19,981 bases of DNA. Source: a virus (lineage: Duplodnaviria > Heunggongvirae > Uroviricota > Caudoviricetes). This document shows, in pieces, positions 1-18,342 of the stretch. Within the stretch, counting starts at the first letter, position 1; each line of letters opens with the position of its first letter. The position numbers and the translations under genes are program-made. The stretch lies in IMG/VR virus record IMGVR_UViG_2671180422_000005; one strand, given 5' to 3'. The notes under the pieces are model-generated. The model saw only the letters and a program-made list of their open reading frames with translations, searched no databases and was not told the DNA's origin.

Positions 1-1284
1 TTACAGACTTCTGGAAGGTTGCGCAGCTCTTACAACACGCGGTTGATCTTCCGCAGCGTCTTCCAGCGCACTTAAATCACGGTCTTTCACCTCTGGCATT
101 TTCAGCGCAGAGATTAAACCAATCACTGAATATGCCATGATCATAATGGCGATCGGATACCAGGATTCCGTCATGGTGCAGAAAATACCCGCCAGGATAG
201 GACCAAAACCGGAAGCGATAAGACCACCAATTTCTTTAGAAATAGCCATCCGGGTAAAGCGGTTTTTACAGCCGAACATTTCTGCCATGGTAATGTTTTC
301 CAGAGCAAATAATCCCAGCACCGCACAGTTATGAATCACAATCAGTGCAACCATAATGGTGCTCGGGGCATAGCTTTTATCTACAATGATAGAAAGCATT
401 GGCCATGCCAGCACAATCGCGGAGGTATTCATAATAATATACGGGATCCGGCGACCAATTTTATCGGATAACCAACCAAGGAACGGAATGGTCATAAAGC
501 CGAGAATCGAACTGATCATCAATGCATCTGTTGGAATTGCTTTGTTAAACAATAACGTCTGCACTAAATAGCCTGCAAGGAAAGTCTGAATTAACCCGGA
601 GTTACCCGCCTGACCAAAACGCAGCCCTGTTGCCAGCCAGAAGGATTTGCTCTGGAACATGCTACCAGCAGGTGCAGGTTTTGCTGTCGGTTGGTTACTG
701 TCGTTAACCTTCTCAAAGACCGGGCTTTCTTTCAGATTCATACGCAACCAGATAGCAAAGACCATCACGACAACACTCGCCAGGAACGGTATACGCCATC
801 CCCACGCCAGCAGTTCCTCTTTACTGAGAATGAAGAACATAAAGGCCCAGATTGCCGTTGCGCTCAAGGTTCCGCAGTTAGTTCCCATAGCCACAAATGA
901 GGAGATAATTCCGCGCTTACCTTTTGGCGCATATTCCGCCAGCATCGTACCGGCACCGGAAATTTCCGCACCTGCACCCAACCCCTGAATAATACGCAAC
1001 GTCACCAGCAAGATGGGTGCAAAAACACCAATCTGTGCATAGGTCGGTAACACACCAATTAAGGTGGTACAGATCCCCATCATGGTGATGGTAATAAAGA
1101 GCACTTTTTTACGCCCTATTCTGTCGCCCATTTTGCCGAAAATAAATGCTCCGACAATACGCGCCACATAACCTGCACCGTAGGTTCCCATTGCCAGAAT
1201 TAACGCCATTGCCGTTGATGATTCAGGAAAAAATATTTCATGAAACACTAACGCTGCGCCGAGCGAATATAACTGGAAATCCAT
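1..1284 (-). CDS. ydfJ: MFS transporter, metabolite:H+ symporter family (shikimate/ShiA-like), N-terminally truncated by prophage insertion
   Basis: 427-aa ORF with 12-TM MFS character; begins MDFQLYSLGAALVF, which corresponds to the end of TM1 in ShiA-like transporters, so about 25-30 N-terminal residues are missing; ATG at 1282-1284, TAA at 1-3. Confidence 0.85.
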   Translation of the reverse strand: MDFQLYSLGAALVFHEIFFPESSTAMALILAMGTYGAGYVARIVGAFIFGKMGDRIGRKKVLFITITMMGICTTLIGVLPTYAQIGVFAPILLVTLRIIQGLGAGAEISGAGTMLAEYAPKGKRGIISSFVAMGTNCGTLSATAIWAFMFFILSKEELLAWGWRIPFLASVVVMVFAIWLRMNLKESPVFEKVNDSNQPTAKPAPAGSMFQSKSFWLATGLRFGQAGNSGLIQTFLAGYLVQTLLFNKAIPTDALMISSILGFMTIPFLGWLSDKIGRRIPYIIMNTSAIVLAWPMLSIIVDKSYAPSTIMVALIVIHNCAVLGLFALENITMAEMFGCKNRFTRMAISKEIGGLIASGFGPILAGIFCTMTESWYPIAIMIMAYSVIGLISALKMPEVKDRDLSALEDAAEDQPRVVRAAQPSRSL

Positions 1285-2070
1285 AATTCACAGGTGTTTT
1301 TTCCCATCCTGTGGTTTCCTTGGCGTTTTCTAGGTTTTTTCAGATAGTTGCATTTTTTTAAAAAGCATCCTAAGTTCGATCTCAGTGTCTATCTGGGGCC
1401 TATTTCTGTCCCATATATGCCCCAAAAAAACTCCCCAACAGATAAGTAGTTTTTTCATGGATTTATGCGTAAAATCAAGAACGGCTGGAAATCATTCAAT
1501 ACTCACACTATCGAAAAATTTACCAGCCAATCGCAGCACGTTCTTGCATAAGGCGTGTCTGCGGTTTTTCAACTATTCAGATACATCACTCCCATCACAT
1601 TCATTCCTCCGCATCAAAGGCATATAGGCTATATCACCTTGATATTTTTCTTTTTCAGATAAAAACTGTTATCTATGTATACTTTTAAACCCAATCCGTG
1701 TAGAGTCTCTGCATAAGATAGTTTGCAGTTGCCGCTTCAGCTTGCGCCATAAACCGCCTGATTTTTGCTGCCACCTGTTAGCATTCCTGTATACCTGAAA
1801 CGACAATGTTTATCTACGAACTTTAAGAACACCCAAGATAAAAATTGTCAACTATATCATATATAACACATTACTAATTCGAGGCTATATGAACAGCATA
1901 CTGATAATCACATCTCTCCTTATCATATTCAGCATTTTTAGTCATGCCCTAATAAAATTAGGGATTGGCATATCCAATAACCCAGACAAAACCGATGTAT
2001 AAGTCAACATATCCTGAATCAGACATACAATATCGCAATGAAAATCAATAATATTTTAAGGAATATCTTC

Positions 2071-2304
2071 ATGAAATCAAAAGACACCCTAAAGTGGTTC
2101 CCTGCGCAGCTTCCTGAAGTAAGAATTATCCTAGGGGATGCTGTAGTGGAAGTAGCAAAACAGGGAAGACCTATCAATACCAGAACATTGCTTGATTACA
2201 TTGAAGGAAACATAAAGAAAAAATCATGGCTGGATAACAAAGAATTATTACAAACAGCGATATCAGTTCTTAAAGACAACCAAAATTTAAATGGTAAAAT
2301 GTAA
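2071..2304 (+). CDS. ydfK: YdfK/YnaE-family cold-shock-induced small protein (77 aa)
   Basis: ATG at 2071 preceded by AAGGAA 7 nt upstream; product MKSKDTLKWFPAQLPEVRIILGD... matches the YdfK/YnaE family as recalled; about 0.7 kb AT-rich non-coding leader upstream. Confidence 0.8.
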   Translation: MKSKDTLKWFPAQLPEVRIILGDAVVEVAKQGRPINTRTLLDYIEGNIKKKSWLDNKELLQTAISVLKDNQNLNGKM

Positions 2305-2620
2305 TATAATAAACTTACTTTTTTATCATTTTTCCACTTTAACAACATTTTGCTCCACTTTTCCACGACCAAACAACTTGAAATCTGGTTAAAATAACAC
2401 GCAACACTATTCTTCTTCCTTGAGTCCGCCCGGAACTCGAAAAACAAACCGAGTTAAAGCCATTTTTCACAAAATCGATTTTGGGTCTCACCAAAATTAC
2501 GGGGTTGCATACGCATTCGTTTATTTTCGAACGTGTACATACAAATATGCACAAAAATAATCATAATTATTTTCTGAGATGCATTATGATATGAACACCA
2601 ATTTCGTATAGAGTCTCACT

Positions 2621-3211
2621 ATGTCTCAAATTTTTGCTTACTGTCGGATATCAACGCTGGATCAGACCACCGAAAATCAACGCCGGGAAATCGAAAGTGC
2701 AGGTTTTAAAATCAAACCTCAGCAAATAATCGAAGAACACATTAGCGGCTCAGCAGCAACCAGTGAGCGTCCTGGTTTTAACCGGTTGCTTGCTCGCCTG
2801 AAATGTGGTGATCAATTGATTGTGACAAAACTGGATCGCCTTGGTTGTAATGCAATGGATATCAGGAAAACAGTGGAACAACTGACCGAAACAGGTATCA
2901 GAGTGCATTGCTTAGCATTGGGGGGCATTGACCTGACCAGTCCAACAGGAAAAATGATGATGCAAGTAATTTCAGCAGTCGCTGAATTTGAACGAGACCT
3001 TTTACTTGAACGCACTCATTCCGGGATAGTAAGAGCCCGCGGCGCAGGGAAACGTTTTGGTCGACCACCTGTGTTAAATGAAGAACAGAAACAGGCGGTA
3101 TTCGAACGAATTAAGTCAGGTGTAAGTATAAGTGCCATTGCCCGGGAATTCAAAACCTCGCGGCAAACCATTTTAAGAGCCAAAGCAAAACTTCAGACAC
3201 CTGACATATAA
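2621..3211 (+). CDS. pinQ: Serine recombinase, DNA invertase of the Pin/Gin/Hin/Cin family
   Basis: 196 aa; N-terminal catalytic motif YCRISTLDQ (active-site Ser10), C-terminal HTH ([18 protein letters not shown]); sequence as recalled for PinQ/PinR. Confidence 0.9.
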
Positions 3212-3308
3212 AAAATAATCTCGGTGTGAGATGCTTTACGTCTTCCAAGCCCCCTTCCTTGCCGTAAATGGAAAGATACATCTAATTATAGAATTTATAT
3301 GTTTTACC

Positions 3309-3444
3309 CTACGGCAGTGCTGGCCATTCAATATCCTGTGCAGTTGACGTATCAACACGGTTCAGCAATACCCGATACTTTTTCCATGCTTCCAGCAACG
3401 AGATTTCTTCCTCCGTTGCAATTTCCAGATCTGCAGCATCCTGA
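3309..3444 (-). pseudogene. 3' remnant (about 45 codons) of a tail fiber assembly gene tfa, fused to gene A
   Basis: Minus-strand frame reads ...[43 protein letters not shown]-stop, the conserved C-terminus of lambdoid Tfa proteins; no upstream Tfa sequence remains. Confidence 0.55.
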
Positions 3445-5337
3445 ATCTGCCAGTGTTTTCTTGTTGGTTGCTGCACCATCCTCTTCCTGCAGGCTCGCCA
3501 GCAGTGCACTGAGATCCAGCTGCCAGCGGGAAATACTGATGCGCAGCGCCGCCAGCGCATAAACGAAGCAGTCGAGTGCCTCATTGCGTCGCTTTTTGCT
3601 GTCCCACAGTATTTTTTTCCTGCCATCCACCCATTTTTCGACCTGCTCTTCAGCAGTCAGCTGCTGCGCTTCGGTCAGATCAAAAATATCCGGGTTATTC
3701 GGGAAGTGAACGGCACCGGGAAGCGGTTCATCCCCTTCCGGCGTCAGTGTGAAGCGGTTATAAATCTGCTCTTTCGCGGTATCCGTACCGATTTCGGTAA
3801 GGTAAACCCCGTTTTTGTTTCGCTTACGTGGCATGCTGGCCACCGGCTTTCCGTAGACGGATGCCCCTTTAATGGGGATCACCCGGAACAGCCCATGTTT
3901 TTTCGAGCGTTCATACACAATGGTCGGGTCAATCCCGCCAGTATCCCAGCAGATACGGGATACCGACATTTCTGCACCATTCCGGCGGGTATAGGTTTTA
4001 TTGATGGCCTCATCCACACGCAGCAGCGTCTGTTCATCGTCGTGGCGACCCATAATAATCTGCCGGTCAATCAGCCAGCTTTCCTCACCCGGCCCCCATC
4101 CCCATACGCGCATTTCGTAGCGGTCCAGCTGGGAGTCGATACCGGCGGTCAGGTAAGCCACACGGTCAGGAACGGGCGCTGAATAATGCTCTTTCCGCTC
4201 CGCCATCACCTCAGCATCCGGACGTTCGCCGATTTTCGCTTCCCATGTCTCACCGAGCGTGGTGTTTACGAAGGTTTTACGTTTTCCCGTATCCCCTTTC
4301 GTTTTCATCCAGTCTTTGACAATCTGCACCCAGGTGGTGAACGGGCTGTACGCCGTCCAGATGTGAAAGGTCACGCTGTCCGGCGGCTCAATCTCTTCAC
4401 CGGATGACGAAAACCAGAGAATGCCATCACGGGTCCAGATCCCGGTCTTTTCGCAGATATAACGGGCATCAGTGAAGTCCAGCTCCTGCTGGCGGATGAC
4501 GCAGGCATTATGCTCGCAGAGATAAAACACGCTGGAGGGGTCATCCGGCGTCCATTTGAGGCCAAACGGCGTCTCTTTGTCGCCAAATTTAAGATACTGC
4601 TCCTCCCCGCAGTGCGGGCAGGCAACATGAAAACGCATAAAATGCAGGGATTCACTGGCTGCACGCTCAATCTGGCAGGTGCCTCTCACTTTGGGCGTGG
4701 AGCCACGGATGGACTTTGGCCAGACCGAGCCTTCAATACGTTTGTCGCCAAGGAACGTCGGAGAGCCTTCCTGTTCAATATCCTCATCAAAGGCAGCAAG
4801 TTCATCATAACCCGCCACATCCACCGACTTTTCACGGTAGTTTTTTGCCGCTTTACCGCCCAGGCACCAGAAGCCACGACCATTGGAAAAACGCTTCATA
4901 GTGAGCGTGTTATCCCGGTGCTTTTTGCCATACCACGGAGCCAGCGCCAGCAGCGACGGAATATCGCGGATGGTCGGCTCAACGTGGGTTTTCATAAAGT
5001 TCTCGGCATCACCATCCGTCGGCAACCAGATAAGGGTGTTGCGCTGCTTATGCTCTATAAAGTAGGCATAAACACCCAGCAGCATTTTGGAATAACCGAC
5101 ACGGGCAGACTTCACCACATTCACCTCACGGATGTAGTCGCTGCCCATCGCATTCATGATGGCCCGCTGAAAGGGCAGTGTTTCCCAGCGCCCTTCCTGG
5201 TATGCGGATTCTTTCGGGAGATAGTAATTAGCATCCGCCCATTCAACGGCGGTCTGTGGCTCCGGCCTGAACAGTGAGCGAAGCCCGGCGCGGACAAAAT
5301 GCCGCAGCCTGTTAACCTGACTGTTCGATATATTCAC
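3352..5337 (-). CDS. A: Terminase large subunit gpA-like, 661 aa, with the last about 10 lambda residues replaced by 30 unrelated residues
   Basis: Collinear with lambda gpA from [19 protein letters not shown] through ...[11 protein letters not shown]; diverges after coordinate 3445 into ...[30 protein letters not shown], which is tfa-derived DNA read in another frame. Confidence 0.9.
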
Positions 5338-7738: not shown

Positions 7739-7945
7739 CTTCATTTTCACTTTTTTAAATCCAACGACAGACGGCTGGCATTTAAGTATTGTGAAATATT
7801 ATCAAATGTAATCATCATTGATTTACAAAAGATACATTTTGCCCCGAAAGGATTCATGTCAGAAACATCAAAAGATGATGTTCTATACTGGGAACCATGA
7901 CAACACGGGCATCTAAAGTGAATATGGTTTGTAATATTGTCTACC

Positions 7946-8158
7946 TCAAAGCGCCACTACATGAACAGCGGCAGGACCTTTAGGTCCGTTCTCAATACCA
8001 AATTCAACTTCCTGATTCTCAGTTAATGTTTTGAAATCGTTGCTCTGAATTGCTGAGAAATGGACAAACACATCTTTGCTGCCATCTTTCGGCGTGATGA
8101 AACCAAAACCTTTTTCAGGGTTAAACCATTTCACTAAACCAGTCATTTTGTTAGACAT
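7946..8158 (-). CDS. cspI: Cold shock protein CspI (CspA family, 70 aa)
   Basis: [53 protein letters not shown]... with RNP1/RNP2 motifs; long leader upstream typical of csp genes. Confidence 0.95.
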
Positions 8159-8520
8159 AATTATTACCTTTTGAAGAAATTAGCCCTTGGGCAGAATGGT
8201 CCGAAAAAAAATATCAGAGAGAAAAACCAACAAGGAAATCTCAAGAGGTACAAATAATAAAATTATAACAATGACTGCTTCAGATAAATTTGTAACAAAC
8301 CAGAACACCATTAACGCATGATTAACCACCCATAGCAAGGATTACTTTTGTAAAGAAAAACACAGCAATGAAAGAATAGCTTTATTTATTAATAAAACGT
8401 GTCATTCTGATTAAGACCTTTTATCTTACCCTTAAGATTTCAGGAATTTTGGCTCATGGAAGAGTCCTTTTTATTTAAATTTTACATTCCGCGATGTAAA
8501 TGTTCCGATTTAATATTACC

Positions 8521-10548: not shown

Positions 10549-10829
10549 GAGATTGTGGTGCTTTTTGTGGGAGTCATCCACTTACGCACTTTGTTTTGCC
10601 ATGCCAGCAGTTAGCTTCTGCTGTAAAACTATTCATGCAGCAAACCTGCACTTCACCACAATGGTTAGCATACTTTTCCTGATTAAGATTTTGCCAAATA
10701 TGCTAGCCATTGTTTCATGTATTGGACCTCCTTACTTTTTATTAAAGAGATCCAATATTCACTACTCTGTCCGTATCTCTACTCAGGCATCAGCCTTCTT
10801 CGTTATCGTATACAGACGAGCGATGAATT

Positions 10830-11045
10830 TTAATCAGTAATGATGACATTTGCTGCTGCAGGACCTTTAGCACCACTCTCTATAGAGAAGGTAACCTTTT
10901 GACCTTCAAATAAGGTTCGATAATTATCATTCTGAATCGCAGAAAAATGCACAAACACATCTTTACTACCATCAACAGGAGAAATAAAGCCGAAACCTTT
11001 ATCAGCGTTAAACCATTTTACTAAACCAGTCATTTTATTTGACAT
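10830..11045 (-). CDS. cspB: Cold shock protein CspB (CspA family, 71 aa)
   Basis: [53 protein letters not shown]...; AAGGAA Shine-Dalgarno. Confidence 0.95.
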
Positions 11046-11345
11046 TCTACATTCCTTAACTTGAGCCTTTCGGCATAAATGGTTTGCATAACAGAAACGA
11101 CTTCGTACTTAATTGGAGAGACTCAAAGAAGGAATAAGTGAATAACACCTGAAATGAGAACTGCTTTAGTAAACTACTTCGTATATCGTCTGTTCTTCAA
11201 ACCGACGCAATCATTAACGCATAGTTGAACATATGAAGCAATGTTTATTTTAGACATCCAGCCATCTTCAACCCCATCAAAAAACTATAGCTTTCTTCAG
11301 GAACGTGTGTATAGTGCGCCAAGTTATCAGTATTAAGGAATTTTT

Positions 11346-13726: not shown

Positions 13727-14134
13727 ATGGAAACAAAAAATTTAACTATCGGCGAACGCATCAGGTATCGTCGGAAAAACCTCAAACACACCCAAAGGTC
13801 TCTTGCTAAAGCCCTGAAAATCTCCCATGTGTCTGTATCACAATGGGAACGGGGTGATAGTGAACCTACAGGGAAGAACCTTTTTGCCCTCAGCAAAGTA
13901 TTGCAATGCTCACCAACATGGATTCTATTTGGCGATGAAGACAAGCAACCAACACCACCTGTTGAGAAGCCAGTTGCCTTATCCCCCAAAGAACTAGAGC
14001 TCCTTGAGCTGTTTAATGCACTGCCAGAATCAGAACAGGATACCCAGCTCGCCGAAATGCGAGCTCGAGTAAAAAACTTCAATAAACTCTTTGAAGAATT
14101 ACTAAAAGCCCGTCAGCGGACAAATAAAAGATAA
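13727..14134 (+). CDS. dicA: Repressor DicA (HTH, cI/C2-like; 135 aa)
   Basis: METKNLTIGERIRYRRKNLKHTQRSLAKALKISHVSVSQWERGDSEP... matches DicA as recalled. Confidence 0.95.
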   Translation: METKNLTIGERIRYRRKNLKHTQRSLAKALKISHVSVSQWERGDSEPTGKNLFALSKVLQCSPTWILFGDEDKQPTPPVEKPVALSPKELELLELFNALPESEQDTQLAEMRARVKNFNKLFEELLKARQRTNKR

Positions 14135-14194
14135 CATCATCAATGAGTTATCTTTTACCACATCAATTATGTTAGCTATAGCATACAAAATCAC

Positions 14195-14223
14195 TTGACC
14201 GATATGTTAGTCATGGCTAATCT
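14195..14223 (+). promoter_or_regulatory. Candidate dicB-operon promoter (PL analogue) with embedded operator
   Basis: TTGACC (14195-14200), 17-nt spacer, TAATCT (14218-14223); the spacer contains ATGTTAGTCAT, repeating the TGTTAGTCAT core of the dicA-dicC palindrome. Confidence 0.45.
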
Positions 14224-14300
14224 TGTTTGCATCAACACACCGCACGGTGTTCTCAGCAAACAGTTCCGCTACCCCAGCGTTAAGGGGAAATGAGGTCAGC

Positions 14301-14456
14301 ATGGATACTATCGATCTTGGCAACAACGAATCTCTGGTGTACGGCGTGTTTCCAAACCAGGACGGCACGTTCACCGCAATGACGTATACCAAAAGCAAAA
14401 CGTTTAAAACCGAAAATGGTGCCCGTCGCTGGCTGGAAAGAAACTCAGGTGAGTGA
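14301..14456 (+). CDS. ydfA: YdfA (DUF1391) small protein, 51 aa
   Basis: ATG at 14301, MDTIDLGNNESLVYGVFPNQDGTFTAMTYTKSKTFKTENGARRWLERNSGE; first gene after the candidate promoter. Confidence 0.8.
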   Translation: MDTIDLGNNESLVYGVFPNQDGTFTAMTYTKSKTFKTENGARRWLERNSGE

Positions 14457-14457
14457 T

Positions 14458-14586
14458 ATGGATTTCGACACAATCATGGAAAAGGCTTACGAAGAATACT
14501 TCGAAGGCCTTGCCGAAGGCGAAGAAGCTCTCAGCTTCAGTGAGTTTAAACAGGCGCTTTCCAGTTCGGCAAAATCTAACGGCTGA
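14458..14586 (+). CDS. ydfB: YdfB small protein, 42 aa
   Basis: ATG at 14458, one nt after the ydfA stop; hand translation MDFDTIMEKAYEEYFEGLAEGEEALSFSEFKQALSSSAKSNG; a different frame from the ORF-track entry 14453-14662. Confidence 0.7.
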   Translation: MDFDTIMEKAYEEYFEGLAEGEEALSFSEFKQALSSSAKSNG

Positions 14587-14615
14587 TAAGCGAAACAGCA
14601 CCGCGAGGAATCAGT

Positions 14616-14834
14616 ATGCAGAAACGAGAACCCGTCATCATCGCGCCAGACTATACCGATGATGAACTTTATGAGTGGATGCGCCAGAAAATTAATGCAG
14701 CGCAGGATCTGAAATGGGCTAATGAAGCCAGGGCTAAGCAGGCTGAAAATCTGTCCGCTCTGGAGCAGGATATCACCAATCTGGAAAAAGCAGCGGCATT
14801 AAGCATTGCCAGAATGATTACATACCCGCGTTAG
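14616..14834 (+). CDS. ydfC: YdfC, 72 aa
   Basis: MQKREPVIIAPDYTDDELYEWMRQKINAAQDLKWANEARAKQAENLSALEQDITNLEK... Confidence 0.85.
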   Translation: MQKREPVIIAPDYTDDELYEWMRQKINAAQDLKWANEARAKQAENLSALEQDITNLEKAAALSIARMITYPR

Positions 14835-15174
14835 TAGCTAATCAACAAAGCTAAGGTTAGTAATTAAGGAGTTCTCCACGGGTGAGGTGGAGTGCGTGCG
14901 CCGGACACGGGTGCGCATCCGGAACTGACAGTTTACTGAAAGGATATTTCCCTGAAAAGTCAGACCATAACGCGAAAGCGCACGGCGAGGTAGCTGGTTC
15001 ATAGATAGCCTGTCGTTAAATTTTCGTCGACCGTGCGCTTCCGGTTGTGGCAACCCGCGAAATGGCGCGGCGGTAAGTATGGCGGGGTTATTCCTTCCCC
15101 GTTGAGGACACCGGGTTGTCAGGTTGACCATACGCTTAAGTGACAACCCCGCTGCAACGCCCTCTGTTATCAAT

Positions 15175-15232
15175 TTTCTGGTGACGTTTGGCGGTATCAG
15201 TTTTACTCCGTGACTGCTCTGCCGCCCTTTTT
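15175..15232 (+). ncRNA. dicF: DicF small RNA (Hfq-dependent inhibitor of ftsZ translation), processed from the dicB-operon transcript
   Basis: TTTCTGGTGACGTTTGGCGGTATCAGTTTTACTCCGTGACTGCTCTGCCGCCCTTTTT matches the DicF sequence as recalled; ends in a GGCGG/CCGCC stem plus U5 terminator; mature 5' end is uncertain by a few nt. Confidence 0.8.
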
Positions 15233-15401
15233 AAAGTGAATTTTGTGATGTGGTGAATGCGGCTGAGCGCACGCGGAACAGTTAAAACCAAAAACAGTGT
15301 TATGGGTGGATTCTCTGTATCCGGCGTTAATTGTTAACTAGTTAACGTCACCTGGAGGCACCAGGCACTGCATCACAAAATTCATTGTTGAGGACGCGAT
15401 A

Positions 15402-15590
15402 ATGAAAACGTTATTACCAAACGTTAATACGTCTGAAGGTTGTTTTGAAATTGGTGTCACTATCAGTAACCCAGTATTTACTGAAGATGCCATTAACAAG
15501 AGAAAACAAGAACGGGAGCTATTAAATAAAATATGCATTGTTTCAATGCTGGCTCGTTTACGTCTGATGCCAAAAGGATGTGCACAATGA
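15402..15590 (+). CDS. dicB: Cell-division inhibitor DicB (kil-type), 62 aa
   Basis: MKTLLPNVNTSEGCFEIGVTISNPVFTEDAINKRKQERELLNKICIVSMLARLRLMPKGCAQ; GAGGA Shine-Dalgarno. Confidence 0.95.
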   Translation: MKTLLPNVNTSEGCFEIGVTISNPVFTEDAINKRKQERELLNKICIVSMLARLRLMPKGCAQ

Positions 15591-15778
15591 ATTCAGCATT
15601 TGTGCTTGTTCTGACAGTTTTTCTTGTTTCCGGAGAGCCAGTTGATATTGCAGTCAGTGTTCACAGGACAATGCAGGAGTGTATGACTGCAGCAACCGAA
15701 CAGAAAATTCCCGGTAACTGTTACCCGGTCGATAAAGTTATTCACCAGGATAATATCGAAATCCCGGCAGGTCTTTAA
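15587..15778 (+). CDS. ydfD: YdfD small membrane protein, 63 aa
   Basis: ATG overlaps the dicB stop (ATGA); MNSAFVLVLTVFLVSGEPVDIAVSVHRTMQECM... with N-terminal TM segment. Confidence 0.9.
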   Translation: MNSAFVLVLTVFLVSGEPVDIAVSVHRTMQECMTAATEQKIPGNCYPVDKVIHQDNIEIPAGL

Positions 15779-15870
15779 AACAGTTCCGTAATAAATATCC
15801 GGTTTCATTCTTATATGCCAGCAATGGCAGGGATTTGTTCATCCTTAAATCTGTCATGAGGTTAAAACAA

Positions 15871-18342
15871 ATGAGTAAAGTCTTTATTTGCGCCGCTATT
15901 TCTGACGAACTGGCAACAAGGGAAGAAGGCGCTGTGGCTGTAGCCACAGCCATTGAAGCTGGCGACGAACGCCGTGCTCGAGCAAAATTTCACTGGCAAT
16001 TCCTGGAACATTATCCGGCTGCTCAGGACTGCGCTTATAAATTTATTGTCTGCGAGGATAAACCTGGCATACCCCGCCCTGCCCTCGATTCATGGGATGC
16101 TGAATATATGCAGGAAAACCGCTGGGATGAGGAGTCTGCTTCTTTTGTCCCGGTTGAGACTGAATCCGATCCGATGAACGTCACTTTTGACAAGCTGGCC
16201 CCTGAAGTACAGAACGCTGTCATGGTTAAGTTCGACACATGTGAAAACATCACCGTTGATATGGTTATTAGCGCACAGGAATTGTTGCAGGAAGACATGG
16301 CAACATTCGACGGACATATCGTTGAAGCGTTGATGAAAATGCCAGAAGTTAACGCCATGTATCCGGAGCTTAAGTTGCACGCCATTGGGTGGGTTAAGCA
16401 TAAATGTATTCCTGGTGCTAAATGGCCCGAAATTCAGGCAGAGATGCGCATCTGGAAAAAACGTCGCGAAGGTGAACGCAAGGAAACCGGAAAATACACG
16501 TCTGTTGTTGATCTCGCCCGCGCCAGAGCCAATCAACAGTACACTGAAAATTCAACAGGAAAAATCAGCCCGGTCATTGCTGCCATTCATCGCGAATACA
16601 AGCAGACATGGAAAACACTGGATGACGAACTGGCCTACGCTCTCTGGCCTAGTGATGTGGATGCCGGAAACATTGACGGCAGCATCCATCGCTGGGCAAA
16701 AAAAGAAGTTATCGACAACGACCGCGAAGACTGGAAGCGTATCTCGGCATCAATGCGCAAACAGCCTGATGCCCTTCGCTACGACCGCCAAACTATTTTT
16801 GGCCTTGTCCGTGAGCGTCCGATCGACATTCACAAAGATCCCGTAGCACTGAACAAATATATCTGCGAATACCTGACGACAAAGGGCGTGTTTGAGAATG
16901 AAGAAACAGACCTGGGCACTGTTGATGTTCTCCAGTCATCAGAAACACAAACTGATGCAGTGGAAACTGAGGTATCTGATATCCCAAAAAATGAAACCGC
17001 GCCGGAAGCTGAACCATCTGTAGAGCGTGAGGGGCCGTTCTATTTCCTCTTCGCAGATAAGGACGGAGAAAAATACGGTCGCGCAAACAAACTCTCTGGT
17101 CTGGATAAGGCACTGGCTGCTGGCGCCACTGAAATCACAAAAGAAGAATATTTTGCCCGAAAAAATGGCACATACACGGGCTTACCGCAAAATGTAGATA
17201 CCGCTGAAGATTCAGAACAACCAGAGCCGATAAAAGTTACCGCTGACGAAGTAAACAAAATTATGCAGGCAGCCAATATCAGCCAGCCTGACGCCGATAA
17301 GTTGCTTGCTGCATCACGTGGTGAATTTGTTGAAGGGATTAGTGACCCGAATGATCCGAAATGGGTTAAGGGGCTCCAGACCCGCGATTCTGTGAACCAG
17401 AACCAGCATGAATCGGAACGGAACTACCAAAAAGCGGAACAAAACAGTCCAAATGCGTTACAAAACGAGCCAGAAACGAAACAGCCTGAACCAGTAGCGC
17501 AACAGGAAGTGGAAAAAGTCTGCACCGCCTGCGGTCAGACCGGCGGCGGCAACTGCCCTGATTGTGGCGCGGTGATGGGCGACGCAACATACCAAGAAAC
17601 ATTCGATGAAGAGTATCAGGTTGAAGTTCAGGAAGATGATCCGGAGGAAATGGAAGGCGCTGAACATCCACACAAGGAGAACACTGGCGGCAATCAGCAT
17701 CACAATAGCGATAATGAAACTGGCGAGACGGCAGATCACCCAATTAAGGTGAACGGTCATCACGAAATCACATCCACCAGCAGGACGTGTGACCATCTAA
17801 TGATCGACCTTGAAACCATGGGAAAAAATCCTGATGCCCCGATCATCTCAATAGGTGCAATATTTTTCGATCCGCAAACCGGAGATATGGGACCGGAATT
17901 TAGTAAGACTATCGATCTGGAAACTGCTGGCGGAGTCATTGATCGGGACACCATTAAATGGTGGCTTAAGCAATCACGCGAAGCGCAATCTGCCATTATG
18001 ACCGATGAAATCCCGTTAGATGATGCACTGTTACAATTGCGAGAATTTATCGACGAAAACTCCGGTGAATTTTTTGTTCAGGTTTGGGGAAATGGAGCCA
18101 ACTTCGACAACACGATTTTGCGCCGTTCATACGAACGGCAGGGGATCCCCTGCCCGTGGCGTTACTACAACGATCGCGATGTACGCACAATCGTTGAGCT
18201 GGGGAAAGCCATAGACTTCGATGCCAGAACGGCTATTCCATTCGAAGGTGAGCGCCATAATGCACTTGATGACGCCCGTTACCAGGCAAAATACGTTTCA
18301 GTTATCTGGCAAAAACTGATCCCGAGTCAGGCTGATTCTTAA
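15871..18342 (+). CDS. ydfE: Large RecE-like (YdfE-family) protein with central CxxC...CxxC zinc ribbon and C-terminal DEDDh (DnaQ-like) 3'-5' exonuclease domain, 823 aa
   Basis: ATG at 15871 with GAGG upstream; exonuclease motifs MIDLETMG (Exo I), NGANFDNTIL (Exo II), HNALDDARYQAKY (Exo III); zinc ribbon CTACGQTGGGNCPDCG; acidic low-complexity linker; N-terminus matches YdfE as recalled. Confidence 0.8.
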   Translation: MSKVFICAAISDELATREEGAVAVATAIEAGDERRARAKFHWQFLEHYPAAQDCAYKFIVCEDKPGIPRPALDSWDAEYMQENRWDEESASFVPVETESDPMNVTFDKLAPEVQNAVMVKFDTCENITVDMVISAQELLQEDMATFDGHIVEALMKMPEVNAMYPELKLHAIGWVKHKCIPGAKWPEIQAEMRIWKKRREGERKETGKYTSVVDLARARANQQYTENSTGKISPVIAAIHREYKQTWKTLDDELAYALWPSDVDAGNIDGSIHRWAKKEVIDNDREDWKRISASMRKQPDALRYDRQTIFGLVRERPIDIHKDPVALNKYICEYLTTKGVFENEETDLGTVDVLQSSETQTDAVETEVSDIPKNETAPEAEPSVEREGPFYFLFADKDGEKYGRANKLSGLDKALAAGATEITKEEYFARKNGTYTGLPQNVDTAEDSEQPEPIKVTADEVNKIMQAANISQPDADKLLAASRGEFVEGISDPNDPKWVKGLQTRDSVNQNQHESERNYQKAEQNSPNALQNEPETKQPEPVAQQEVEKVCTACGQTGGGNCPDCGAVMGDATYQETFDEEYQVEVQEDDPEEMEGAEHPHKENTGGNQHHNSDNETGETADHPIKVNGHHEITSTSRTCDHLMIDLETMGKNPDAPIISIGAIFFDPQTGDMGPEFSKTIDLETAGGVIDRDTIKWWLKQSREAQSAIMTDEIPLDDALLQLREFIDENSGEFFVQVWGNGANFDNTILRRSYERQGIPCPWRYYNDRDVRTIVELGKAIDFDARTAIPFEGERHNALDDARYQAKYVSVIWQKLIPSQADS

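Follow-up and report, generated by a model that had tools for sequence, protein, structure and literature searches.

A probable RNase III processing helix closing an STnc100-related RNA domain in the dicF-dicB spacer of the Qin prophage

The Qin prophage of Escherichia coli carries in its immunity-left operon the dicA–ydfABC–dicF–dicB region, in which the small RNA (sRNA) gene dicF is separated from dicB by a spacer of 174 nt. We analysed this region in a stretch of 19,981 nt of viral DNA (IMG/VR record IMGVR_UViG_2671180422_000005; hereafter the window, with positions counted from its first letter), for which a long-range inverted repeat in the spacer had been predicted from the sequence alone. 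We found that the two arms of the repeat are the strands of one long conserved RNA helix, P1. The domain that it encloses appears, from sequence comparison, to be a divergent relative, embedded in an operon, of the prophage sRNA family STnc100/PasD. It is likely, in our view, that P1 serves as a processing helix for RNase III and closes this domain, and that the two together make up a portable leader.

RESULTS

The inverted repeat forms a helix of 21 pairs

The coordinates of the original prediction were all correct when checked against the sequence: 15236-15250 (GTGAATTTTGTGATG) is complementary to 15371-15385 (CATCACAAAATTCAT), and 16 nt separate the 3′ arm from the ATG of dicB. The arms are joined by 14 Watson-Crick pairs and a terminal G15236:U15385. 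A repeat search lengthened them to 15237-15255 and 15366-15384, the inward continuation being U:G, G:U, G-C, U-A and G-C up to 15255/15366, and as + strand RNA the helix reaches 21 contiguous pairs between the following strands, both of which were placed by repeat search, fold and covariation.

15235-15255, + strand: 5′ strand of P1, containing the 5′ arm
15366-15386, + strand: 3′ strand of P1, containing the 3′ arm

When 15100-15470 was folded, every P1 pair had a probability of 0.85-1.0. Folding of 15170-15410, which had been proposed as a check, gave the long stem in both the minimum free energy (MFE) structure and the centroid, with z = −4.35. We compared the repeat with 300 dinucleotide shuffles of the segment 14835-15401 and observed that the longest Watson-Crick inverted repeat was 14 against a maximum of 11 in the shuffles, and that with G:U pairs allowed it was 21 against a maximum of 19 (0/300 in both cases).

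By length, a reported RNase III-dependent end falls inside P1

RNase III needs ∼22 bp, its dimer covering about 22 bp (PMC6212723), and the 21 contiguous pairs of P1 have the length of an RNase III substrate, which is about 20-22 bp of double-stranded RNA with hardly an interruption. According to two later papers (PMC5069750, PMC9438474), the 53-nt form of DicF ends at the terminator, and the 3′ end of a 72-nt form was attributed to RNase III by Faubladier, Cam and Bouche (1990, J Mol Biol 212:461). By arithmetic from these lengths, the latter end would fall at 15246 (15175 + 71; cut 15246|15247), within the 5′ arm, ∼10 pairs from the top of the helix and 11 from its base, which is where such a dimer would cut. 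RNase III leaves a 2-nt 3′ overhang and in vivo prefers G-C pairs between its cuts (PMC6212723). The overhang rule would put the partner cut at 15376|15377, with G15245-C15376 and U15246-A15375 as the pairs between the two cuts, so that a first cut at this position would satisfy the G-C preference.

The dicA-dicF-dicB intergenic regions are also listed as RNase III substrates in a review, and Table S1 of Gordon 2017 has an entry, marked as known, at 1649470 (window 15263) with 26 reads in the rnc mutant and 0 in the wild type. The original prediction had proposed the stem as a processing site that separates dicF from dicB, and the computed position of the 72-nt end in mid-helix, as far as those secondary sources give its length, bears this out. 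As an RNase III end on the 3′ side of DicF was published in 1990, the processing-site idea is not a new hypothesis.

The following course of events would best explain these observations. P1 would form solely in transcripts that read through the dicF terminator, and would close a pseudoknotted domain in the spacer. RNase III would cut the helix in its middle, at ∼15246|15247 and presumably at ∼15376|15377, which would part DicF from the dicB message, leave dicB with a ∼25-nt unstructured leader bearing a 5′ monophosphate, and cut out a domain of ∼130 nt whose remaining P1 (9 pairs) would be like that of stand-alone STnc100. The cleavage may either raise DicB synthesis, as in the lambda N leader, or hasten the decay of the message.

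The enclosed segment is a conserved multi-helix domain

The 110 nt enclosed by P1, which had been treated as filler, turned out to be a conserved domain of several helices, of the STnc100 class; with P1 it amounts to a folded domain of ∼150 nt. Its parts are as follows.

15259-15274, + strand: P2, hairpin GCGGC-UGAGC-GC(A)CGC (MFE fold and family alignment)
15275-15277 with 15320-15322, + strand: P3c, short helix (A-U to C-G changes among relatives)
15279-15285, + strand: 5′ strand of the putative pseudoknot, CAGUUAA, enclosed by P3c
15286-15319, + strand: hypervariable insert, enclosed by P3c
15323-15349, + strand: P4, hairpin with stem GGCGUUAA / UUAACGUC (15323-15330 with 15342-15349; fold and covariation)
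15331-15341, + strand: loop of P4, with the 3′ strand of the putative pseudoknot at 15334-15340
15351-15365, + strand: P5, hairpin CCUGG-AGGCA-CCAGG (15351-15355 with 15361-15365; fold)

P5 directly adjoins the 3′ strand of P1, with no spacer between them. In place of the insert, relatives carry unrelated sequences of other lengths, several of which fold into a hairpin of their own. A 26-aa open reading frame (ORF) at 15257-15337 was rejected because it crosses this insert, the length of which varies among relatives by non-multiples of three. A tRNA-like element was dismissed as well, since ARAGORN gave no match in 14700-15500.

Relatives of the domain include the STnc100 sRNAs

In blastn searches of phage records, 15222-15386 had matches of 79-86% identity in phages without dicB (Rac-SA53, Shigella Stx phage 75/02, POCJ13 and several vB_Eco phages), and 15249-15372 was matched in the P1-like phages D6 and P7. 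The latter matches had raised the c4/IsrK antisense RNA of phage P1 as a candidate; it was discarded, as there was no Rfam C4 match and the P7 match lies in the ban operon, not in immI. A relaxed Rfam scan assigned 15239-15379 to RF02076 (STnc100; model positions 21-154 of 206) with 33.4 bits and E = 1.6e-5, which is below the gathering threshold of 47 bits; the gathering scan of the window does not list it. The outer helix of the STnc100 model corresponds to the inner part of the arm stem.

Searching species-representative genomes with the motif TCACCNGGAGGCACNNGGCAC gave 120 loci, most of them in Enterobacterales; a few G+C-rich chance matches were removed, and the search pattern fixes the sequence of P5 apart from one free pair. 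The relatives with a short P1 scored 65-138 bits against STnc100 and are bona fide members of it, and one relative of the dicF-linked type (L138) is intermediate, with 47.8 bits, just at the threshold. A full STnc100 RNA consists of the domain, a linker of ∼20 nt and an intrinsic terminator. In the window all elements of the domain, namely GGUGAAU, P2, P4, P5, UCACCNGGAGGCACCNGGCACC and the closure by P1, are in register, and the terminator positions of the model (∼167-206) are unmatched.

The STnc100/PasD sRNAs are prophage-encoded and Hfq-associated and pair with targets in trans, as known from RIL-seq (bioRxiv 10.64898/2026.05.13.724894), and STnc100 copies are abundant RNAs in enterohaemorrhagic E. 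coli (EHEC; PMC5331693). The Rfam-based annotation of EDL933 has 11 STnc100 and 4 DicF copies, none adjacent to each other. The family occurs in most E. coli genomes, and the core of the window's subfamily in up to 8 copies per genome. Several family copies adjoin phage tRNA genes (loci L131, L210, L201, L211 and L238).

The helices are maintained by compensatory changes

Among 116 distinct arm combinations, P1 pairs 1-6 were paired in 113-116, with exchanges of the pair type at pair 4 (GC/GU/AU/UA), pair 5 (UA/CG/UG/AU) and pair 6 (GC/AU/GU/CG). P1 exchanges G:U for G-C and A-U, and is therefore compatible with + strand RNA only. In an alignment of 96 sequences, P1, P2 and P5 were together paired in 86.4% as against 35-48% with slid partners, and the covariation score was 0.276, which none of 500 shuffles reached, as against 0.119 at most when slid. 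In the same alignment, 99.6% of the P2 cells were paired, with compensatory changes at three well-populated pairs; P2 of the window (GCGGC/GC(A)CGC) has flipped pairs compared with the CCCCC/GG(N)GGG of the family (CCCCC-UNNGC-GG(N)GGG). The free pair of P5 was U-A, G-C or A-U in all 96 sequences. The strands of P4 always pair, with a sequence that is wholly different between members, including the STnc100 relatives, and with compensatory changes at 3 pairs within the subfamily.

We also observed that the loop of P4 and the segment following P2 have a mean contiguous complementarity of 6.0 nt, compared with 4.58 ± 0.11 (maximum 4.89) in a loop-swap control. This indicates a covarying pseudoknot between the two segments in the STnc100 family, including the subfamily of the window; it is missing from the consensus structure line of Rfam STnc100.

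The dicF-linked subfamily was aligned separately, as 54 distinct sequences that include those of Citrobacter, Klebsiella, Pseudescherichia, Scandinavium and phage P7. The full model was paired in 98.6% of the cells, versus 31-40% when slid, and 16 pairs were changed on both sides, versus 4.2 ± 1.5 in the shuffles (0/500). Compensatory changes were seen in 10 of the 21 P1 pairs, and they keep the P1 stem in four other genera; in Citrobacter (L127) and Klebsiella (L194) a P1 extension of 17-19 bp is retained with an unrelated sequence.

Long-P1 copies precede genes and short-P1 copies stand alone

We classed a copy as long-P1 if the duplex energy of its 32-nt flanks was at or below −22 kcal/mol. 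A Shine-Dalgarno (SD) sequence with an ORF start followed within 70 nt in 52 of the 63 long-P1 copies but in only 5 of the 76 short-P1 copies, and a terminator followed within 90 nt in 2/63 and 23/76, respectively; these counts include many close relatives, the independent long-P1 lineages numbering about five. The genes after the long-P1 copies encode three types of DicB (PHROG 1251), Kil (PHROG 294), a Rha/Ant-like regulator (PHROG 995), TerB (PHROG 632) and, in two genera, a product of the unknown family PHROG 7311. The element stops ∼20 nt upstream of kil in Rac-type phages, and in P7 an STnc100-like domain lies in the ban operon between tRNA-Thr and terB/tciA.

As homology between these contexts stops just past the 3′ strand of P1, the domain can be regarded as a portable leader module, and its recurrence in other phages, where it precedes kil, an antirepressor-like gene and terB/tciA, suggests a portable leader that would be processed. 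Judged by sequence context, the long-P1 copies thus appear to be leaders and their short-P1 relatives stand-alone sRNA genes. In 42 of 90 of the latter, a −10-like hexamer ends 9-12 nt upstream of GUGAAU, and their transcripts would therefore start at P1.

In Rac, the long-P1 copy lies directly downstream of the sRNA KilS (b4833; PMC8175672) and is followed by kilR. KilS is like DicF, being its positional homolog and ending at the equivalent terminator U-tract. We considered whether KilS is itself the domain and rejected this, as its coordinates (406-503 of locus L251, − strand, equal to NC_000913.3 1418405-1418502) put it at the position of DicF, upstream of the domain. P5 of the K-12 Rac copy carries a G-to-A change (CCAGA). 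Two database records with related sequence have host labels that look doubtful: MT713136 (“Aeromonas phage AP1”), in which 242 bp (249911-250152) are 98% identical to the dicF-dicB spacer, and PP818812 (“Actinobacillus phage pPE4”; L125), which is a Rac-like dicA-ydaT-kil-recE region.

The palindrome rests on a rare allele

The perfect 14-bp palindrome GTTAACTAGTTAAC, predicted within the enclosed segment at 15333-15346, is present; the window contains four such palindromes in all, where 1.2 are expected. It did not hold up as a feature of its own, as it rests on a rare single-nucleotide polymorphism (SNP), A15340. Position 15340 is G in a K-12-like strain; the G allele was found at 8403 places in 4257 genomes and the A allele at 122 places in 110 genomes, the G-to-A change that makes the palindrome thus being confined to ∼1.4% of the copies. 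The first half of the palindrome lies in the hairpin loop that takes part in the predicted pseudoknot, and the second half is the 3′ strand of P4. The SNP which makes the palindrome perfect therefore loses a conserved pseudoknot pair, C15279-G15340, at which the window is the sole non-pairing row among the 54 subfamily sequences. A hairpin or DNA site is ruled out by the allele frequency and by the covariation of the P4 stem, and the palindrome is incidental, without evident importance. Besides 15340, the window differs from the K-12-like strain at just two positions in 14000-16200, 14983 and 15901.

The leader upstream of dicF consists of at least two modules

The 340 nt between ydfC and dicF had been described as GC-rich and without a credible ORF. 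There is indeed no long ORF on the + strand, but the leader is only modestly GC-rich (52.9% G+C in 14835-15174, against 44.6% for the window). A 111-aa ORF on the minus strand (14838-15173, TTG start) was set aside because indels of 1-3 nt in relatives break it; in some phage records the corresponding stretch carries annotations of hypothetical proteins. The leader is not one structure and contains at least the following two modules.

14966-15049, + strand: leader helix A, predicted stem of ∼22 bp (14966-14988 with 15027-15049)
15044-15166, + strand: conserved non-coding module (sequence conservation in phages)

Both strands of helix A are conserved, and its apex (14989-15026) is hypervariable in sequence and length (35-38 nt), relatives having unrelated sequence of other length there. 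Covariation is limited to 2 pairs changed on both sides (term +0.21), there being too little variation. C14983, which is T in K-12, sits in the 5′ strand of this helix. The 190-nt species of DicF depends on RNase III, which makes its 5′ end (PMC10448788). Helix A is the probable site of this cut, as the end, placed from its length, would fall at ∼15038-15043, in the middle of the predicted helix; the ‘813/814’ numbering of that paper is not reconciled with 190 nt. With a helix of RNase III length on each side, DicF would thus be bracketed by two.

The module 15044-15166 has ∼89% identity in phage cdtI and in Stx2c phages and 78-82% in phages P1 and P7, and gave no Rfam or tRNA match. Its copy in P1 and P7 lies just downstream of Pban and overlaps the annotated ‘dicF-like region’ of phage P1. 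The ban operon of these two phages has both of the non-coding modules of the dicB operon (phage P1: L247, 2501-2654; P7: L121, 1092-1189 and 2486-2631).

The locus

The remaining features of the operon are given below; ydfD is the next gene past dicB.

13727-14134: dicA
Ending at 14834: ydfA/B/C
14835-15174: untranslated leader, 340 nt, between ydfC and dicF
15175-15227, + strand: dicF, 53-nt sRNA (Rfam RF00039 match; K-12 annotation)
15228-15232: U-tract of the dicF terminator
15390-15394, + strand: SD sequence of dicB, GAGGA
15398-15404 with 15409-15415, + strand: hairpin of 7 bp over the dicB AUG, GAUAAUG-AAAA-CGUUAUU (pairing probability 0.66-0.88)
15402-15590, + strand: dicB coding sequence, from its ATG (ORF list, annotation, PHROG 1251 match of the product)

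Window positions are converted to NC_000913.3 by adding 1,634,207, and dicF of K-12, annotated at 1649382-1649434, accordingly corresponds to 15175-15227. The RF00039 match of DicF covers 15176-15227 and scores 76.7 bits, the gathering threshold being 48 bits. A 1-kb query showed 100% identity to strain 88-3493 and 99.8% to K-12-like strains, and was matched in 4739 of 5426 complete E. coli genomes. The hairpin over the AUG (15398-15415) is retained in the other dicB types seen. Elsewhere in the window, the Rfam cspA thermoregulator matched 10814-11206 (− strand, 158.8 bits) and 7919-8304 (− strand, 112.8 bits); the two matches presumably mark the Qin cold-shock genes and their 5′ untranslated regions.

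DISCUSSION

We favour the explanation that RNase III processes the dicF-dicB spacer within P1 and that P1 closes an STnc100-related domain serving as a portable leader. Several points weigh against it. The position of the first cut comes from lengths given in secondary sources and is good to a few nt; the second cut and the excised domain are deduced; and the data point of Gordon is low-coverage. The STnc100 score of the window lies below the Rfam gathering threshold, and its own pseudoknot is weakened, with C15279 opposite A15340. Many of the subfamily sequences are close relatives, and the outer half of P1 is supported by about five lineages.

The original prediction also offered the stem as a structure gating the translation of dicB. 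Such a gate, acting without cleavage, would use P1 with the last C residues of the terminator and the U-tract to hide or block the ribosome-binding site of dicB, and would be compatible with processing. The base of the helix, 15386, is indeed 4 nt upstream of the SD sequence, of which G15390-G15393 pair with a probability of ∼0.55 with CCUU 15226-15229 or CCUC 15161-15164; the AUG lies within its small hairpin, and in kil-type leaders UU(G)UAAAAA, which immediately precedes the SD sequence, can serve as a pairing partner for the U-tract and AAA. However, the partner of the SD sequence shifts with the length folded and its pairs are weak, the sequence just past the 3′ strand of P1 is wholly different between contexts, and both the length of the helix, which suits RNase III, and the RNase III end reported within it speak for cleavage. 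A purely structural gate is thus weakly supported, and we regard it as rather improbable. A different role in expression, also improbable though conceivable, would be the control of transcription, the untranslated stretch being a zone where Rho loads or terminates transcription, or an antitermination RNA of the put/nut kind, that silences dicB and kil; the helix would then serve this role instead of processing. The region lies within a PL-type early operon, and in Rac, where a copy of the domain is directly upstream of kilR, this gene is silenced by NusG-dependent termination and is induced by repression of nusG (PMC10798246). Nevertheless, a compact and heavily paired domain is a poor Rho-binding site, the Rfam scan gave no similarity to antitermination RNA families, no result here links a point of termination to the domain, and the RNase III length of the helix and the reported cut would remain unexplained.

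It is unlikely that the domain is an independently transcribed sRNA gene, with TAAAGT (15232-15237) as a −10 element, a start near 15245 and a long stem that is partly promoter DNA. The short-P1 relatives do have the −10-like hexamer with a start at P1, TAAAGT is kept at −15 from GUGAAU in 24 of 33 subfamily contexts, and STnc100 copies are, as mentioned, abundant in EHEC. On the other hand, a promoter scan of 14100-15900 gave no + strand promoter, the dicF terminator occupies the −35 position, and an ORF, not a terminator, follows the domain, starting 16 nt on. Stand-alone STnc100 genes have their own promoter at P1 and an intrinsic terminator ∼20 nt after P1, neither of which was found in the window. 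The P1 pairs upstream of the putative start (pairs 13-22) still covary and must therefore be transcribed, and no extra promoter was reported in the part of the operon that was examined, upstream of dicF (PMC10448788). TAAAGT, which has no accompanying −35 element, may have been left over from the promoter of an ancestor that stood alone. We rejected a role of the repeats as DNA (a protein-binding palindrome, a cruciform or a recombination site) as well as chance. GTTAACTAGTTAAC is a perfect palindrome and mosaic junctions occur just after the 3′ arm, but the palindrome is the minor allele described above and has three counterparts in the window; the G:U tolerance of P1 and its exchanges with G-C and A-U fit single-stranded + strand RNA only, and the observed repeat length was reached by none of the shuffles.

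RNase III processing within P1 would also leave room for a further possibility, which we put forward tentatively. The dicBF and Rac-type kil operons may encode a second structured non-coding RNA besides DicF and KilS, namely the domain of ∼130 nt (∼15247-15376), excised by RNase III. Its invariant UCACCNGGAGGCACCNGGCACC, the stacking of P5 on P1 and the covarying pseudoknot would suit an RNA that binds a protein or the ribosome and has its own function, exerted in cis on dicB or kil or in trans, beyond that of an Hfq scaffold or a spacer.

DicB and Kil are toxic inhibitors of division, and DicB also guards the host against some phages; how much of either is made from a derepressed or read-through transcript hinges on events in the spacer. 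An RNase III cut inside the closing helix of a conserved RNA domain would give a structure to the 35-year-old result on the 3′ processing of DicF, and links the dicBF and kil leaders to the widespread STnc100/PasD family. That RNase III processes both sides of DicF is established, and in this respect our main claim is an ordinary one; its extension is moderately interesting. The accessible papers on the dicB operon do not describe the helix partner 120 nt downstream, which Faubladier 1990 may show as a stem. In the literature searched, we found no description of the spacer as an STnc100-class domain, of the pseudoknot of the family, or of a long-P1 leader variant before kil, dicB, ant-like and terB genes.

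Among known systems, the RNase III sites of the dicB operon, as far as the sources cited above report them, belong to the same locus, their ends being those of the 190-nt precursor (5′) and of 72-nt DicF (3′). With the STnc100/PasD RNAs the spacer shares a P1-closed domain with the GGUGAAU junction, the P2 hairpin with a UNNGC loop, the P4 hairpin, the invariant UCACCNGGAGGCACCNGGCACC, P5 stacked right on P1, the position of the pseudoknot and the location in prophages. It differs from them in three flipped pairs of P2, in a P1 of ∼21 pairs compared with 6-10 in the stand-alone relatives, and in lying between a terminator and an ORF with no promoter or 3′ terminator of its own. In the N leader of phage lambda and in the early mRNAs of T7, cleavage by RNase III separates cistrons and can change the translation downstream. 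Those sites likewise consist of an RNase III helix in an early polycistronic phage transcript, just upstream of a ribosome-binding site. They are unrelated in sequence to the helix described here, and, unlike their simple hairpins, the dicF-dicB helix closes a large conserved domain with a predicted pseudoknot.

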